Of a stretch of 64,000 nucleotides of DNA, positions 154 through 64,000 are shown in pieces. The DNA is taken from the NCBI GenBank assembly GCA_030141605.1, contig JAQGDQ010000164.1, positions 372,001-436,000 of the forward strand, read 5' to 3'. The position numbers and the translations under genes were made by a program. Each line of letters begins with the position of its first letter. The stretch's first letter is position 1. Source of the DNA: Tubiluchus corallicola. Its lineage: Eukaryota; Animalia; Priapulida. The notes beneath the pieces were generated by a model. That model ran no database searches and was not told the DNA's origin. It saw only the letters and a list, made by a program, of their open reading frames with translations.

Positions 154-288
154 GCGATCCTTGTGTCTGGCCATGATCTTGTTGATCTTTTGGCTGTACT
201 GAAAGCTACTGAGAAAACTGGTATCAATGTTTATACACACGGAGAGATGCTGCCAGCTCACGGATATCCCAAATTGCGCAAATATAAG
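154..288 (+). CDS. hcp: HCP exon: [45 protein letters not shown]
   Basis: tttaag| acceptor and |gtaaat donor; 135 nt; contains GHD and HGE cluster-ligand motifs; absent from the ORF track. Confidence 0.93.
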
Positions 289-3200
289 GTAAATTCATTA
301 AGGTTAGTCTAGGCTGATGTGGTCGCATGACCAAGATAGCAAAAGTTGTTGCCTTTTGTGATCTAGATATTGTAGTATGAAAATCTGTCATCACGGTATT
401 ATGTTAGACATGTTATGGATTGACGGTGCTGTTATAGAAATTTCATTGCTTCTTACTTGAGAATGTCATATTTGTTACATTGTTAGAATACAATTGTTTT
501 TTTTTATATATCATATTATTTTCAATAAAAGAAGCAAAAAACAAAATGGTTTATTCAAAAATTTGAATTGCATAGAATACAGTTTGTCTATACATTCAGA
601 GCGCTGAGTTCAAATTAGCTCAAGTTTTTGCAAATTCCATTCCTTGAGTTTAATTTGGCTAAAGAATTTGATGATTTGTCGCTAATCACTGCAATCTCTC
701 AGAATCTGGTGGGACATTTTGGAGGAGCTTGGATGCTGCAGAAATTTGAGTTTCCGAGATTTCCCGGTCCGATCGTCGTGACAACAAACTGCATCATTGA
801 ACCACATCACTCGTACAAGGACAGACTTTTCACCCTAAACGATGTCGGGTGGTCAGGTAATTTCATTAATTAAATTGTTCATGACAAATATTTATCTTAT
901 AAATTGTGATTACCATCCTTTACAAAATGTCGGAGCTGTTAACTTCTCTTCATAAACATTTGGACAACACCTGCACGAGTAACAACAGCAAAATGGAAAA
1001 AGTTGTGTACTGTAAAAGGTTCATTATCGTGACCTAAGAATTACACGCAAATTTTGTTGTTGTTTGCTGACATAATTTGTGTTAATGTTACATAACCTTG
1101 TTTTGTTACATATCCATATAAAATTGAAATTGTCACTTGATGAGAATTCCCCATTTGTTAAAGGCTGTAAACACTTGGATTTATCACGTGACGATCACAT
1201 GGCAGACCTGCTGTCCTCTGCTATGAGCTGCGAAGGCTATACTCGGGAGTTTTGTGATTCCTACAAAGACAGAGACGGGAAGTTGACTGTAGGATTTGGG
1301 CACGACTTCCTGCTTGCTAATGCCGGAAAGGTATGCATGTCTCAAAATGTTGTTGATTGTAGACACTGTTTTTAAAAAGGAAATTAGAAAATGAAGCATA
1401 TCACTACAGTATTTTTACAACTTTTTACCTTCATGAGTTTATGCAAAAAAGGTAAATATCCACCATTGTGAATGCCTGCAGTCAACTGGTCCAATTTCTG
1501 GTATTAAATTAGAGCGTGTTTTATAGATATTTGCTTATTTTGTGATTTTAATAAAGTTTGCTTTTAGAAATAATAGTGAAATGTGCTTCATATCATATCA
1601 CTATTGCTGGGTACTCACACCCACTTGTTGTTTTGTTTTAATCCCAAGTAATTATATTGGTGAATTAATATAATTTTGACTGTAATCTTACTCTTGAAGC
1701 AACAGGGACAGATTACATATTGTTTGTGCACACCCTTAAAGTAATTTTCGAGGAGGCCAAGCATTCAGGGTATTTTCATTTATGTTTTAAATCTCACATT
1801 TTGCTGTAACGGTTTGATCTGTAAAATAGATTATGTATTACACTTGCATCATTTTTTTGCTTTAATGTTCTAGTTTATTGTGTTTATTGTGACATGTCAT
1901 AATTGTCGAAAACACTACACAGTTACGGCACATTCAGACTATCAAGTTTCCTCTAGCGAATTCTCTCTGAGAGTAAACACGCAAGTGTGAACGGCTTTGC
2001 AAGAACTGTCTTGAGTTTTGCTGAGTGTAAACTCATGCTTACTGTTGGAGAGAATTTGCAGCAACTCTTGGGAAAGTTCGCAAAAACTTACCGGCAGAAC
2101 TTGCAAAACCGTTCACGCTTCTGAGTTTACTCTCAGAATTTACTCGTCTGTCAGAGTAAGATACCCAACTTGGAATCGATCCCACAACTTCTCAGATAGG
2201 AAGTAGTTACTTATAAATTATTTACACACTGTAACAGTTTTACTGTATATAATGTACACAGGTTACAGCACAAATGTTTGTTCTTAAACTAAAAAGAATA
2301 GCAAAGAATGACTTGGATGCTATGCTAACACTGACATGTAGCTCATGTTTTTTCACTTTGTATACATTTCAGGTAATAGATGCAGTAAAAAGTGGAGGAC
2401 TTAAAAGAATTTTTGTTGTGGGCGGATGCGATGGCTCAGAAAATCGTAGAAGTTATTACTCCACACTTGTAGAAAGTTTACCACAAGATACAGTCGTATT
2501 GACCTTGGGCTGTGCCAAGTACAGGTGAATTTTTACTTTACATATATTATATTGTATTATATTGTAACTGTGGGAAATGTTTTTCTAGTTTTTGTGTATA
2601 AGTGTATTGCGTTTTATTGCTTTGAGTAATGCAGTTACTTCATTGTTTCCGACTTCAATGATCTTAACCCACTTAAGACTTGTTCAAAGTTGTATTGTTA
2701 GTATAGGTCAGATCAGATTTCAGTTCAATGCTGTAATTTCTTGCTTATCAAATATCTGTTGCAACACTAGCATCACAGTAATAACTTCTATGAAAAGATG
2801 TTTGCTAATTTTGAACTATTTGCAGCCACCCATTGCTTATCTTACAAATGTTTTAGCTGCTGCTGTTTAATAAGAATTTAAAAGCACTGTATTTGATTGA
2901 TGGTGAAAGGCTGTCAGAATTGTATATGAAGCTTTGCAATCCTGGTAGCATAAAGTCATTGAGCATTCTCGTCAACATCATTTTGAGGAAAATGTGTTGC
3001 CGAGTAGCAAGGTGCTCTGATTGGTGACTAGTCAATCGTAGTTAAGAACTGTTGTTCCAAGGCTTCTTGGGTGAACTGCTTCAAAAAATACTCGTTGTTG
3101 GTGGTTTTAGTAGCCATACTGTTTCTTGCTGTTTGCCTCATAGAGTGTGTGTGTGTGTATTCACCTCCGAATGATGCTAAGATGGTCAGTGACATCATCT

Positions 3201-3758
3201 TACAGACACCTTGGCAAAGAGTCATGTTTCATGAAAATCCAGTTAAGTAGGACTGTGTTGTTGCACACCAGTTTCTAGCTTGCTGCATGTCAGGTCGTAT
3301 AAGGAAACACAACACAGTTGATTAAACTGCAAGCAGACGAAGATGTAGAGAAGTAATTGAAAAAGTTATTGTACAAATTGCTTTCATTCTACAGGTTTAA
3401 TTACAAAGACCTGGGCATGTTAGGTGAGTCAGGAATCCCTCGCTTGCTGGACATGGGACAATGTAATGATGCATATGGAGCTGTGGTCGTCGCTTCGGCT
3501 TTAGCTGATGCTTTCAACACCGATGTCAACTCTCTGCCTATATCCCTTGCTATTTCCTGGTTTGAACAGAAAGCTGTTGCTGTCCTGTTGACTCTGCTTC
3601 ATCTGGGAATCAAGAACATTCGACTGGGTCCCAAATTGCCGGCTTTCCTGACACCCAATGTGTTGAGAATTCTTGTAGACAAATACAACATTCAACCTAC
3701 AGATAATCTACATCCACTTGATGACATGAAGTTGATGATGGAGCAGAAAGTTGGGTAA
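154..3758 (+). CDS. hcp: Hybrid cluster protein (prismane / hydroxylamine reductase), 3' part; join(154..288,703..856,1164..1330,2373..2524,3395..3758); 5' exons lie left of the window
   Basis: Five GT-AG-bounded exons join in phase (0,1,0,2) with no stops. They translate to [110 protein letters not shown], the characteristic C-terminal half of HCP. Confidence 0.96.
703..856 (+). CDS. hcp: HCP exon: [10 protein letters not shown]...TTNCIIEP...VGWS
   Basis: ctcag| and |gtaatt; lies inside ORF 628..873. Confidence 0.93.
1164..1330 (+). CDS. hcp: HCP exon: GCKHLDL...[15 protein letters not shown]
   Basis: ttaaag| and |gtatgc; phase 1 in, phase 0 out; TVGFG motif. Confidence 0.9.
1967..2136. 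mobile_element. Palindromic MITE-like element in an HCP intron
   Basis: Imperfect 42-bp inverted arms at 1967-2008 (ctgagagtaaacacgcaagtgtgaacgg...) and 2095-2136 (...ccgttcacgcttctgagtttactctcag); outer boundaries unclear. Confidence 0.6.
2373..2524 (+). CDS. hcp: HCP exon: VIDAVKSG...VGGCDG...LGCAKYR
   Basis: tttcag| and |gtgaat; GGCDG persulfide-Cys motif. Confidence 0.95.
3395..3758 (+). CDS. hcp: HCP last coding exon: RFNYKDLG...GQCNDAY...SWFEQKA...MEQKVG*
   Basis: ctacag| acceptor; TAA at 3756-3758; AATAAA at 4103 and 4450 downstream. Confidence 0.96.
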
Positions 3759-6700
3759 CGTTTCTATGACGACTGCATTGTGCTTTGCATGTTATGTGCT
3801 TGTATATTAGTGCTGGACAGCATATTAAAAACTTAGAAATTGAACACAAATCAAATCATTACATTAGTTTTACCATTGATCAAATTAGTCTGCTCAGGTT
3901 TTAGTACATTTGAATTTGTTCTACTGTATCATCCTTGTTGTTATATTTACATGTTATGTAAATATTGGTTAATCATAATGGGCTACTGAATATGATGTTT
4001 CAACAAAGGTTTCATTGTTGTTAGCCCTGATTTCGTGGAATTTTAACAGTCTAGAAGAACTGCAGCTGAAAAATTGCAGGAAAAATTGTATCGCATTCCT
4101 GTAATAAACACTTTACATTAAGTTTTACATTAAGTTTTCTGCCTCGTATGCAGTAGAAAATTTTTTGCGTAGTGCTGAAGCGATACCATTCAACTTTCAG
4201 GCATTCACCTCACAACTGCTGAAAAAGTAACTTTAGAGTTTGCAAATTGAAGTATTTTTGGAAGAAGCAATGGACTTACTAGGTGAAAACGAGAGATCAG
4301 TTTATAAATTAGATTTGCTAGTAGTTGTAAATTTGTAGCTCGTTGTTGCAGCATTGAAATTTTCTGTTAACTGTTAATTTTATTTTCTTATCATCAATTG
4401 AATTTCAACTGCAAATTTTGGAATATTTGTAGAACTTGTAAATACCTGTAATAAAATAGTTACTTGATTTTAATTTGTCATAGGTTTCGTCATTTCACAC
4501 TGTTTATATGTAATCATCAATGGCTTCAGTAATTGCTGAAGCAAGAATTGTAAAATTTTGTAATTTTGCTTCAAATGATAATTTTGTGTCATTCTAGTGA
4601 AATCGTACATCTGTCCACGCCTGGCAGCGTTTGATTATTGAGATATCCTGGTCAGGTTCCTGCTGATCACATCAGGTGTGGTGTAGTAGTGTACGATCTG
4701 GATAGGGTGTGGCCTTAACGAATCTATGTTGCTGTGATTTAGGTTTTTTAGTCTGTTCCGCGTACTGACAGATGTTTTGGTGAGTATAATCTCTGTAGTC
4801 AGAATTTTAGAATGTGAGCTCAAGTTGTGTGTAAATACTTTTATATATACATGATTTTAGCACGTACTGCATAGGTGGCTCAGATGTATTGCTCTTATAG
4901 ATACATAGACATATGCCCTTTATGTATAAACTATTTGACAGCAGCCTTTTTGTAGTCCTCTATTATCATGGTTTTCTATTATATTGGTTTTGCTGGTGTT
5001 TACATTTGTGACTCATTGCACTTATGTAGTGAAACAATTTACTGCCTTTGTAAATAGTGGTCTTTATATCTCATGTCTCTAGACTTTTAATTTTTATTTC
5101 TTCTGAAGAGTTTTTTATACTGTTTCACACTTTGCAAGCTCTGACACTCATCGTTTATATTTTGGTGCCATTTGTACAGTGTTTGTTTTTTTACTTTTAA
5201 TTGCATTTTTCTTGGGAATAATATCTCATTTTGTTTTTTCTAAGTAGAAAGTGAACAGTAGCTGTTTGTGTATGAAAACTCATTATGTACTTACTTACGC
5301 ACATCATAGCAGTGAGAATAGATTGAAAATTGTTTGTAAATAGAAGATCATAATTGGTTATTGATTTATTGATGATCATTTTTATATTTGATTCACATGC
5401 TGTCCACGAATTGCAAAAAATAAGAAATCAAAATTACCATTGCCTTGAACACCTAATACACACGTTCCAGGTAAAACCATAATCTGCTCTATGCTGTATT
5501 GCCTATAATTTTTGCTGACAGTGAATGTTAACATATACTTGAGATGTCCTACACCATCACTGTAATCATCCTCACTGCATTTCCTGAAGGGAATTTTATC
5601 TGGTGGAGATGCAATATTTGAAAACGGTAGGTTTGACTCATGTGTAAAACATTACCAGTAGATCATTTTCTATTTTTATGCGTTATTATTTTGCTATACA
5701 TGTATGATGTTGTAATATTAGTGCAGATTCTAGTTATTGCTCTTAGCTATTTATCTAGTGATCTAATCTAATCTATAGGCCTAACTAAATTCACACCAAC
5801 AAGCAAATGCCTAATTGGCTTTTGACAATTAAATAACGTCATTATAAAACCATGTGCATTGTGTTTAGTGTATTTAACAGTACATCCACACACAACAACG
5901 CTTTGGATAATTGGACGTTGAAATTCTCGGTTATTGGTTCAAATAACAATATCACCGTGTTCAGAATTCAATACAGTTCTCTGTTGTAAATACGTAATTG
6001 TTTAGTAGTTTGACCAATGTAATTACATTCACATCTGCTACACAACAACTCATAAACTGCATTATTGCACTAGAAATGTTTATTCAACAACTTCCAACGA
6101 TCGTACGTTTTTTGAGTTCTTCCGTTATTATCGATGCTACAGTTAGGTTGGGCAAACAGTTAGACAGTTTTGTAGTCAAAGTACTCTACAAAATTTATTT
6201 GTTTGCACGTTTTCAGTGGTGAGGCAGCGTTGATTGTCACCACTTTCAACTTGGTTATGTCCAAAGATCATTCGAGTTAAATTATGTTGTTTCTCTGTTT
6301 GTTTAGTAGCTTTGTGTTAAACAAACGTGTTTTATAAAACTGATTGTATAGCTACAAATCTTCATTTTAATTTAATGAAATTTGTAGTCCATTACAATAA
6401 AGTTATTAAGGATTTGTAAATAGGCATATAATACTAATAAAATGTTAATGAATAATATTCCTACTAATAATAACTGCTGACGTTGTCTGAATGGAACAAA
6501 CTATTCATAATAAATGTTTAACACAAAATAAGTCAGACGAAACTTTCGCCTATTTAATTATGTTAAATTTAAAAACTTTATTATCTCATAAAAACATACA
6601 ATGTTACCGAAATCCCTGCAAACAAAAAAAGAACAAAGAAAAAAGACGAACTATTATCAATATTCTGCGCATATACGGCACATTGTAGTTTCATCGCTTA

Positions 6701-9540: not shown

Positions 9541-53384
<43,844 letters not shown>

Positions 53385-62680: not shown

Positions 62681-64000
62681 CTATTCAGTTCTTAAAAGAT
62701 TTATGATTAGCAGGACAATGATGACTAACATCACACCTCCCACAGCTGCAAGCAACATGGTGCCGTAGAACTTTCGACTGGAACCGTCATCGCTTTGCGT
62801 TTCTTCATTTTTAACAGCTCCCACAGAAAGACGTCGCAACGAGCGAGATTTAACCAACGTTACGACGACTCTAGCATAACTGCAACGTTTATCTTCGTAC
62901 AGTTCTTCATTTGGCTCATTACACGCTACCACATTGATATCAACCACTTTATCAGTGGCGTTCACTACACTGAGTTTCGTATAAACCTCTCCCTCTTTGT
63001 CGATTAAGAAATCACTGTTAGGGGGTAGCAGCTTGTATTGCAGATATGCGTTAGGATTTCCAACAATATGAGCTTTAAAGTTAGCGACACCTCTGTTAGG
63101 GCGGACGACGGTGCCACCCTTTTTGTCAATAGTTGCTGTAAAGAGACCTTGTTGAAATTTTGGGTTTCTGCTGTTTGTTCTTATCAACTGAATATCTAGA
63201 CTTGCTTCATCAGAAAATTTTCCATCATCAGCTTTAAGTACAAATGAGAAATGGTCCACACTACTTTTAAGGAAATCTTCAACTGTCCTCAACATGCCAG
63301 TAGAACTCACTGTCAGCACAAGTTTCTCACTAACCGTCTTTGGTCTTATATGGTATTTGATTTCATTTCCATCACGATCTGATGCAGAAACATAGCCAAT
63401 GCTACTCCCATTGGGCATGGTGTCCATTAAACGTAAAAAATAAGTTTTCTTGTCAAAAATTGGTTTATGGTTATTAATACAGCAGATTGTAATGTGTACA
63501 GATGTTGTAGTATAGGCAGTGTGATCAGAAAGTAACACAGCTCTGACTAAAATTAAATATTCAGCAAAATCTGTACCAGTATCCTGTGAACACACTTTAT
63601 TTTCTACTGTCATGTTACCCAAAACATGGTCAATATGAAACAAAGACTTATCTCCAGCAGGGTCATACTCTAATGCCGGTAAACTGTAACGGATTTCATG
63701 ATCTAACGAAGTATCATAGTCAACAGCACGTATTTTTTTAGGCTTTATATCTAATTTCATACGGCTGCTACTGTTAAATGCACTGCAGTTTGCCATGCCT
63801 TGGTAAGGTGAATCAAGAAATACAGGTTTTTGCATAACATCAGTGACAGTGATTTTAAGGGTTGTGGAATCTGACAAAGGAATGTCACCTCCATCATGAA
63901 CTTTTGCTATAACTGTGAAATTTTTCAGTACTTCATAGTTCAGCTTATGTTTCAATTTAACATGGCCTTCCCTCATATCTGGGATTTCAAGGTAGTGAGA
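62681..64000 (-). CDS. Cadherin-repeat type I membrane protein, 3' part (open at the window edge); about 3-4 cadherin-like repeats, one TM helix, 3-residue tail
   Basis: The frame stays open from 64000 (SHYLEIPD-MREG...). Motifs: LNYE, AKVHDGG, ITVTDVMQKPVF, IRAVDYD, NNHKPIF, VSASDRDG, KADDG. Hydrophobic segment TMLLAAVGGVMLVIIVLLIINLL precedes RTE*. Confidence 0.9.
   Translation of the reverse strand, partial: SHYLEIPDMREGHVKLKHKLNYEVLKNFTVIAKVHDGGDIPLSDSTTLKITVTDVMQKPVFLDSPYQGMANCSAFNSSSRMKLDIKPKKIRAVDYDTSLDHEIRYSLPALEYDPAGDKSLFHIDHVLGNMTVENKVCSQDTGTDFAEYLILVRAVLLSDHTAYTTTSVHITICCINNHKPIFDKKTYFLRLMDTMPNGSSIGYVSASDRDGNEIKYHIRPKTVSEKLVLTVSSTGMLRTVEDFLKSSVDHFSFVLKADDGKFSDEASLDIQLIRTNSRNPKFQQGLFTATIDKKGGTVVRPNRGVANFKAHIVGNPNAYLQYKLLPPNSDFLIDKEGEVYTKLSVVNATDKVVDINVVACNEPNEELYEDKRCSYARVVVTLVKSRSLRRLSVGAVKNEETQSDDGSSRKFYGTMLLAAVGGVMLVIIVLLIINLLRTE

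Follow-up and report, generated by a model that had tools for sequence, protein, structure and literature searches.

Gene structure and neighbouring genes

We examined a stretch of 64,000 nucleotides from Tubiluchus corallicola (the window), in which the C-terminal half of a hybrid cluster protein (HCP) gene is encoded by five GT-AG exons between positions 154 and 3758 of the forward strand (Table 1). The joined exons comprise 972 nt and read as 323 codons followed by TAA, with zero internal stops. An AG acceptor precedes every exon, and a GT donor is present at all four introns (414, 307, 1042, and 870 nt; phases 0, 1, 0, and 2). The in-phase exons without frameshifts or stops claimed in the original prediction were thus confirmed. 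The 5' exons and the four cubane cysteines lie upstream of base 154, beyond the window. It was also observed that contigs from runs X1 and X2 extend about 190 bases beyond the window start.

Table 1. Coordinates of the HCP exons, introns, and neighbouring features within the window.
Feature	Position	Strand	Remarks
HCP exon 1 of the window	154..288	+	45 codons, from about Owenia residue 318; GHD His, HGE Glu
HCP intron 1	289..702	+	GT-AG, phase 0
HCP exon 2	703..856	+	TNC Cys; run X6 contig spans 701-857
HCP intron 2	857..1163	+	GT-AG, phase 1
HCP exon 3	1164..1330	+	variable linker and conserved GFGHD stretch; alone without Pfam match
HCP intron 3	1331..2372	+	GT-AG, phase 0
MITE-like host repeat in intron 3	1956..2137	.	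inverted arms and contig depth
HCP exon 4	2373..2524	+	GGCDG Cys, LGC Cys
HCP intron 4	2525..3394	+	GT-AG, phase 2
HCP last exon and stop	3395..3758	+	GQCND Cys, WFEQK Glu and Lys
Candidate polyadenylation signal AATAAA	4103..4108	+	inferred; second at 4450
PMCA calcium pump gene, neighbour of HCP	9541..43782	-	Pfam matches 9544 to 43782; last stop 9543-9541
Cadherin-domain open reading frame	62684..64000	-	

The repeat within intron 3 possesses 43-nt inverted arms (1966-2008 and 2095-2137; 84% complementary) and is present in very high copy number, with a summed contig depth of 22,470 in run X1 compared to approximately 180 alongside it, which bears out, for intron 3, the claim that the introns carry host-type repeats. 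Run X1 contigs were found at depths of 175-182 across the HCP exons compared to 161-174 downstream. Because this run is possibly the source of the window, its even depth does not count as independent support. In run X6, which is RNA only by guess, there were three short HCP contigs (exons 2, 4, and 5) and one contig on the intron-3 repeat, and none of the HCP contigs contained an exon-exon joint; they were given no weight either way on splicing. Of the exon differences listed for run X6, 11 of 13 were synonymous. In run X5, six of the eight listed differences in exon 3 were non-synonymous, an excess that fits poorly with uniform purifying selection; these differences may reflect a paralogue or a relative in that run, with exon 3 acting as a variable linker.

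The stop of the PMCA gene places it tail to tail with HCP across a gap of about 5.8 kb. This arrangement, together with a cadherin on the same contig, had been claimed from the outset, and both were verified by the Pfam matches and the position of the stop. A functional link between HCP and PMCA was considered and dropped, as there was no evidence for one.

Family membership, class, and N-terminal extension

Four of the five exons matched the Pfam Prismane family (PF03063) above its curated cut-off (E = 6e-14, 2e-13, 7e-17, and 7e-39). All seven motifs expected to carry the HCP ligands (GHD, HGE, TNC, GGCDG, LGC, GQCND, and WFEQK) were found in the window gene in the right order, as had been predicted. 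Through an alignment with the Owenia protein, their eight key residues correspond to H244, E268, C312, C406, C434, C459, E494, and K496 of the Desulfovibrio vulgaris HCP (1e2u), positions that comprise the cluster ligands and a neighbouring lysine, and the GGCDG cysteine in exon 4 is presumably the persulfide site. The eight residues were identical in 27 of 27 other animal-clade sequences, and the window protein deviates at six of the 126 near-invariant columns. The initial description of the gene as ligand-complete therefore holds for all of the hybrid-cluster ligands but does not extend to the cubane cysteines.

Whole-protein models were consistent with this assignment: the TIGR01703 and PRK05290 cut-offs were passed by all five full-length orthologues tested, while the last exon alone scored 156-172 bits, below these whole-protein cut-offs. 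On the Ni-CO dehydrogenase model, whose cut-off is 478 bits, the same five orthologues failed with scores of 33-48 bits, and the last exon matched HCP at E = 1e-33 compared to 1e-6 for the dehydrogenase. When a model of the Owenia protein was used for a fold search, HCPs occupied ranks 1-11, and its comparison with 1e1d gave a TM-score of 0.77 by query and 0.89 by target at 41% identity.

The class I cubane motif Cx2Cx8Cx5C, along with the complete N-terminal helical domain that sets class I apart from class III, was present in 26 of the 27 other clade sequences; the exception is 5'-partial. The class II cubane insertion was missing from the orthologues. The best reading of these orthologues is that the window gene is a class I-type HCP. 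For class I HCPs, neither a dedicated reductase nor an electron donor is known (PMC10210160). The lack of an hcr-like reductase, noted in the original prediction, is thus to be expected. On the 3' side of HCP, which is the side that the window covers, 135 of the 181 stop-to-stop frames were scanned, and none matched a reductase family.

An N-terminal extension of 57-71 residues ahead of the cubane motif was present in 12 of 12 named animal proteins, compared to 0-2 extra residues in three of three bacterial-type HCP rows. Within their first 30 residues, 10 of the 12 named animal HCPs had no more than one acidic residue and a net charge of +3 or higher, compared to 20 of 462 control windows. 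This simple charge count is cruder than a trained predictor and covers the orthologues only. These basic extensions likely resemble mitochondrial presequences, and we consider it probable that the product of the window gene is mitochondrial as well. The earlier reading as an NO-handling enzyme is still the most plausible one; it had overlooked this likely mitochondrial targeting.

Distribution and origin of animal HCPs

The window HCP is not confined to one genome. Named orthologues were found in 11 genera of three phyla (annelid, bivalve, and brachiopod), namely Owenia, Lingula, Helobdella, Lamellibrachia, Ridgeia, Mytilus, Dreissena, Mercenaria, Mactra, Sinanodonta, and Solemya, with records that are often automatically annotated as 'hydroxylamine reductase' or 'hcp'. 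The best match was Owenia (70% identity), followed by Lingula (69%), Helobdella (65%), and the siboglinid and bivalve rows (57-63%). A search for shorter proteins yielded no additional named animal among the 120 matches listed, and there were no gastropod, cephalopod, oyster, ecdysozoan, deuterostome, cnidarian, or sponge names among the 120 matches listed per protein search. Because few of these matches carry names and scoring in the main searches was limited to about 8,000 candidates, HCP may well occur in other animal groups too.

We found no study of an animal HCP in the part of the literature that was searched. Two passing mentions were encountered, a clam gene list and a Riftia plume cDNA (2007) suspected of contamination. 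The HCP term was absent from the main text of the Alvinella genome paper and from eight text files of the MitoTOL supplements. Since its relatives Ridgeia and Lamellibrachia possess HCP, the evidence suggests that the Riftia cDNA (GenBank EF648468) may be the worm's own gene.

In the IQ-TREE analysis, the window and the annelid, brachiopod, and bivalve HCPs formed one clade (14 rows; 99/98). The animal clade was also recovered with an SH-aLRT of 100 under a mixture model (nine rows; a quick tree only) and with a support of 1.0 in FastTree. The clade tracks animal groups, with the bivalve HCPs placed together (100/99). A larger group of 44 rows (100/99) united the animal clade with amoebozoan and green-algal HCPs, and the animal clade is nested among protist and algal HCPs with no supported sister; the outgroup material came from a 50%-representative search, and the Acanthamoeba sequence was left out of the trees. 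A sisterhood of the window and Owenia was supported under LG+G4 (91/97), with no such support under the mixture model; judged by the trees alone, an annelid host would be likely but not certain. Introns 1 and 3 were inferred at the same positions in the siboglinid and P0006 clusters, and intron 3 also in P0004. In contrast, the siboglinid and P0006-cluster fragments lack introns 2 and 4 of the window gene and continue in frame across the site of intron 2.

A constraint joining the animals to all three unicellular holozoans that carry names, and to the neighbours of these, was rejected (p-AU = 0.021); when Pigoraptor was omitted, the constraint was not rejected (p-AU = 0.23). As both constrained groups were named after tree inspection, neither test settles the origin of the gene. 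As its sister lacks support, the animal clade may derive from vertical inheritance or from an ancient transfer. A recent bacterial transfer was rejected on the grounds of the eukaryotic neighbours and the shared introns. Of the original description of a 'domesticated or anciently retained' enzyme, ancient retention accords with the single animal clade and with shared introns 1 and 3; a bacterial domestication is not suggested by the trees, as the nearest named relatives are eukaryotic HCPs.

It was also considered whether the stretch is a contaminant, a chimeric join to a protist, or a dying pseudogene. The 5' half of the gene lies outside the window, HCP and PMCA are not bridged by any one contig over the stretch examined, one run shows the non-synonymous excess in exon 3, and the Riftia cDNA was once suspected to be bacterial. 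However, the clade follows animal groups, the orthologues are located on scaffolds of chromosome scale, the longest being 211 Mb, introns are common to the window and other worm clusters, the high-copy repeat of run X1 lies inside intron 3 at otherwise even depth, and the frame is open with all eight key residues. We therefore regard such an artefact or decayed copy as extremely improbable. These comparisons support a host gene that was anciently retained, as opposed to contamination or a transfer of recent date, and that the gene belongs to the host is close to certain.

Proposed function and its alternatives

Our preferred reading, to which we assign a probability of roughly 0.5, is that this is a class I-type host HCP, likely mitochondrial and likely reducing NO to N2O under low oxygen; NO reduction as the main role of the animal enzyme is itself moderately probable. 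The literature searched yielded no assay or localisation of an animal HCP. The 5' exons of the window gene would resemble those of the orthologues, whose N-terminal extension would serve as a matrix presequence. Both the [4Fe-4S] cubane and the hybrid cluster would come from the mitochondrial Fe-S machinery, and a donor of general use, either matrix ferredoxin/ferredoxin reductase or some flavin reductase, could pass electrons in through the cubane. The reaction would be 2 NO + 2 e- + 2 H+ -> N2O + H2O, and it could shield Fe-S enzymes as well as cytochrome c oxidase once the removal of NO that depends on oxygen fails, as might happen in animals of burrows, the intertidal zone, and vents.

PMC10210160 favours NO reduction as what HCPs do physiologically and describes their function as debated, with S-nitrosylase, hydroxylamine reductase, and peroxidase activities also reported. 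The same gene in the same location could instead serve mainly in NO signalling, passing cluster-bound NO to protein thiols and tuning mitochondrial metabolism. The source reports transnitrosylation for the E. coli HCP and speculates on it for the algal enzyme, and the same residues serve both activities, which sequence cannot separate. The E. coli Hcp-Hcr system (7de4), from which both the NO reductase and the S-nitrosylase models originate, shares the hybrid-cluster site. However, it is a class II enzyme for which the S-nitrosylase role was described and is called debated (PMC10210160), whereas the animal orthologues are class I, and we regard a main role in signalling as unlikely.

A main role in reducing hydroxylamine or peroxide, or in serving anaerobic mitochondrial metabolism as an electron sink, is quite unlikely in our view. 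Hydroxylamine reductase and peroxidase activities were measured in several HCPs, although millimolar KM values and low turnover were judged incompatible with a physiological role (PMC10210160), and the oxidation of ferredoxin has been put forward as a role of Chlamydomonas HCP4 (PMC8003979). The database name of the orthologues points the same way, but this naming is automatic. An NO reductase that is cytosolic or dual-targeted, and that takes its electrons from a diflavin reductase or a cytochrome b5 reductase of the cytosol, would agree with the fusions seen in protist HCPs, whose partners are either diflavin reductases or domains of the cytochrome b5 and b5-reductase types, and with the two of 12 named animal HCPs that missed the charge criterion. 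Against this low-probability placement, all 12 keep the long basic extension, the three animal HCPs scanned contain the Prismane domain alone with no fusion, and the amoebal homologue is mitochondrial (PMC13632651).

The mitochondrial NO reductase that we favour most resembles the class I HCPs of Desulfovibrio vulgaris and D. desulfuricans (1e2u, 1e1d, 1gn9) and Methanothermococcus (8cnr) in its hybrid-cluster site residues, the fold of the Owenia model, the Cx2Cx8Cx5C motif of the orthologues, and the lack of a linked reductase gene. It differs in being a nuclear gene with spliceosomal introns, whose orthologues add the basic extension. The HCP of Acanthamoeba castellanii (PMC13632651) and HCP1-4 of Chlamydomonas (PMC8003979) are likewise eukaryotic and unfused, and they are organelle-targeted; microscopy placed the Acanthamoeba protein in mitochondria, and it ranked near the top of the proteins induced by hypoxia. 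These organisms are unicellular with hydrogenase/PFOR-type anaerobic metabolism, whereas the animal clade is a distinct branch.

A structural paper of 2023 gives bacteria, archaea, and unicellular eukaryotes as the organisms with HCP genes (PMC10210160). An animal clade whose genes contain introns and keep the ligands intact widens this range to three animal phyla, among them mussels, clams, vent tubeworms, and a leech. The finding bears on whether anaerobic mitochondrial enzymes date back to the last eukaryotic common ancestor (PMC13777428 and PMC13632651). Hypoxia physiology gains a candidate for oxygen-independent mitochondrial NO removal.

A bolder and rather doubtful proposal is that annelids, bivalves, and brachiopods kept a mitochondrial Fe-S-O NO reductase from unicellular ancestors and make N2O with it. 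The N2O from mussels, clams, and worms is usually credited to their microbes; if the proposal were true, it could partly be animal-made, and animal mitochondria would contain an unrecognised anaerobic module. Mytilus and Helobdella are tractable hosts for the question of the role of HCP in vivo. It was noted that Helobdella and Dreissena, as freshwater and normoxic animals, also keep HCP, so hypoxia is not its sole correlate.

An intron-bearing HCP gene and its surroundings

The predicted exons of the gene for hybrid cluster protein (HCP) join into 323 codons plus a stop, with no internal stops, across four introns that all start with GT and have phases 0, 1, 0, and 2. Four of the five exons scored above the Pfam Prismane cut-off, at profile positions 208-252, 255-307, 346-395, and 401-505 in succession, and exon 3, which had no Prismane match, occupies the profile gap between its neighbors. 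The last exon matched solved HCPs at an E-value of 1e-33 compared to 1e-6 for CO dehydrogenases, and GC content was 45% in the coding sequence versus 30-36% in the introns. This combination of exon pattern, profile order, and coding GC is far beyond chance; the gene is genuine, and its family is an already known one. The first exon begins at approximately residue 318 of the Owenia protein, our numbering reference, which leaves about half of the gene beyond the window, on its upstream side.

Features located in the window
Feature	Position	Strand	Remark
Predicted HCP exons	154-288, 703-856, 1164-1330, 2373-2524, 3395-3758	+	AG acceptor at each
MITE-like element with 43-nt inverted arms	1956-2137		In HCP intron 3
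PMCA calcium pump gene	Between 9544 and 43782	-	Pfam matches
PMCA exon opening the calmodulin-binding region and two apparent alternative last exons after it	9544-9777, 17181-17564, 18689-19030	-	
Low-complexity, repeat-like stretches in PMCA introns	13153-13645, 28472-28869		Frames open on both strands; weak Pfam matches only
Cadherin-domain ORF	62684-64000	-	Continues past the window edge

The original prediction had described five in-phase GT-AG exons without stops, HCP family identity, a full set of hybrid-cluster residues (considered below), repeats in the introns, and a contig shared with PMCA and a cadherin, all of which were borne out. The HCP and PMCA gene ends are approximately 5.8 kb apart; the scan beyond position 3800 covered 135 of 181 stop-to-stop frames, the choice favoring long frames and those on the minus strand. 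The cadherin ORF is a long single frame that probably encodes a transmembrane segment close to its end and continues past the window edge. Both candidate last exons of PMCA match ATP_Ca_trans_C weakly and have different tails, resembling the C-terminal splice variants known from vertebrate PMCAs.

Among the sequencing runs with contigs matching the window, X1 gave the intron-3 repeat a summed depth of more than 22,000, and the copy number of the repeat was very high in X1, X2, X3, and X5. Depth in X1 was 182 and 175 for the two exon-bearing HCP contigs and 161-174 for downstream contigs, a consistent picture but not an independent one, as the window may itself derive from X1. Pieces of the gene were present in runs of three further studies (X3, X5, and X6). 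Among the exon differences listed (40 rows out of 164 and 40 out of 86), X6 had 11 synonymous ones of 13 and X3 had 2 of 3; in X5 the number was only 2 of 8, all of these differences falling in the variable exon 3. One 150-base X6 contig turns back from 2522 to 2381 within exon 4 and carries adapter letters at its end; because it ends near, not at, the exon ends (2524 and 2373), it is probably a library chimera, not circular RNA.

Animal relatives and protein anatomy

The window protein matched Owenia fusiformis best (70% over 318 residues). Next came transcript-sized proteins and Lingula (69%). A profile built from nine such proteins ranked about two dozen clusters above all others. The named members, counted together with cluster members, span 11 genera across three phyla: the annelids Owenia, Helobdella, Lamellibrachia, and Ridgeia, the brachiopod Lingula, and the bivalves Mytilus (five species), Dreissena, Mercenaria, Mactra, Sinanodonta, and Solemya. 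Several of these records lie on scaffolds of 37-211 Mb.

In the phylogeny proposed with the original prediction, the window and the named animal HCPs formed one clade in every tree built. Support was 1.0 and 0.994 in FastTree (196 and 175 rows), 99/98 for 14 rows in IQ-TREE under LG+G4 (55 rows hand-picked from the 175), and SH-aLRT 100 for 9 rows in a quick mixture-model tree of 34 rows. The bivalves grouped together (100/99, IQ-TREE), and the window paired with Owenia at 91/97 under LG+G4, with no resolved pairing under the mixture model. This placement points to a host that is probably an annelid, and at least one belonging to the lophotrochozoan group sampled here. Two database proteins, P0080 and P0132, form a distinct branch inside the clade (100/99) and may come from another animal phylum. 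The Mytilus records P0238, P0239, P0246, and P0247 are partial or divergent models on scaffolds also bearing full ones, which suggests tandem copies or decaying duplicates.

The class I cubane motif (Cx2Cx8Cx5C) was found in 26 of 27 clade members, the remaining one being 5'-partial, and all 27 share the window's eight residues at the hybrid-cluster site. Through Owenia, these align to D. vulgaris positions 244, 268, 312, 406, 434, 459, 494, and 496, which we take to be the cluster ligands. All five full-length orthologues tested passed the NCBIfam HCP cut-offs, and the first-ranked structural matches of the predicted Owenia structure (mean pLDDT 74.6; residues 1-86 unreliable) were HCP structures. 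Each of the 12 named animal proteins carries 57-71 residues ahead of the cubane motif, and the first 30 residues were basic and acid-poor in 10 of the 12, compared to 20 of 462 control windows from mature parts. Named protist homologues have a similar basic extension, and three bacterial-type rows lack one. As such extensions have the look of a mitochondrial presequence, the animal proteins are probably targeted to mitochondria.

Shared introns and evolutionary origin

Intron positions, a comparison also proposed originally, were read from exon-sized fragments cut by gene callers from unspliced DNA, that is, from protein fragments and not genomic alignments. In a siboglinid cluster, P0261, P0262, and P0265 span Owenia residues 363 to 467/468 and P0263 and P0264 start at 468/469; P0216 and P0220 of the P0006 cluster show the same boundaries. 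These match introns 1 and 3 of the window, which follow residues 362 and 467, and the fragments read through the positions of introns 2 and 4. P0004 contains intron-like letters ahead of the intron-3 position, and one Mytilus model jumps from position 466, a weak hint of intron 3 in bivalves. Upstream of the window's part, four fragments of one cluster in the bivalve branch end at residue 132, the site of an 11-residue insertion in the Helobdella model, pointing to an intron that a leech and a bivalve share. Taken with the trees, these fragments point to an HCP gene that already carried introns in the last ancestor shared by annelids, brachiopods, and molluscs.

The animal clade sits inside a 44-row group (100/99, IQ-TREE) whose named members are all eukaryotes, many rows being unnamed and bacterial sampling comprising top matches and 50% representatives. 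These members include the choanoflagellate Salpingoeca punica, the ichthyosporean Amoebidium, the filasterean Pigoraptor, amoebozoans, a malawimonad, green algae, and a glaucophyte cluster. We place a probability of about 0.6 on vertical retention with many losses; ancient transfer from another eukaryote into animals is somewhat less probable, yet a serious contender. With groupings chosen once the tree was known, a constraint uniting the animals with the choanoflagellate and ichthyosporean rows was not rejected (p-AU 0.23), and the same constraint with Pigoraptor added was rejected (p-AU 0.021). No named copy outside annelids, brachiopods, and bivalves was found among the database matches, a result that speaks against straightforward vertical descent unless the gene was lost many times.

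Possible role and electron donors

The surprise lies in host range: a protein described for microbes occurs, with all cluster residues, in three animal phyla. van Lis 2020 reportedly confines HCPs among eukaryotes to anaerobic parasites and microalgae, but its tree might include animal records. A literature search that reached a minority of subscription papers found no study of an animal HCP and two passing mentions, one in a clam gene list and one in Riftia; these proteins are visible in databases yet apparently unstudied. In Riftia, one hydroxylamine reductase cDNA was recorded from a plume-enriched library, with bacterial contamination suggested by its authors (PMC2175520). Andersson 2006 (PMC1484493) deals with protists and PMC8003979 with algae. 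In MitoTOL, HCP is one of the LECA mitochondrial proteins enriched in anaerobes, and the words mollusc and annelid are absent from its main text; a supplement table places Helobdella and Lingula in the 673-species set, outside the 203-species set of the presence figure, and animal HCPs may therefore be present in its online orthogroups (PMC13777428).

If our reading is correct, animal mitochondria would reduce NO to N2O by HCP. The protein would be imported into the matrix and loaded by the mitochondrial Fe-S machinery, electrons from a general donor would enter through the cubane, and the hybrid cluster would reduce two NO to N2O. The proposed role in NO reduction is based on studies of bacteria summarized in PMC10210160, in which hydroxylamine and peroxide kinetics are considered not physiological, S-nitrosylation is debated, and class I electron donors are not known. 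Location and the hypoxia link rest on the Acanthamoeba HCP, reported as mitochondrial by microscopy and strongly induced under low oxygen (PMC13632651).

The animal HCPs are unfused, with Prismane as the sole domain in the three scanned. Protists have HCP fusions with diflavin reductases, and others with domains of cytochrome b5 and b5 reductase, and these eukaryote-type fusions (P0299, P0441, P0305, P0306, P0315, and P0330) point to a possible form of eukaryotic electron donors. The diflavin reductase fusions are approximately 1,200 residues long, with one cluster including the glaucophyte Cyanoptyche; in others HCP is joined to cytochrome b5, and b5-reductase domains may be present or absent.
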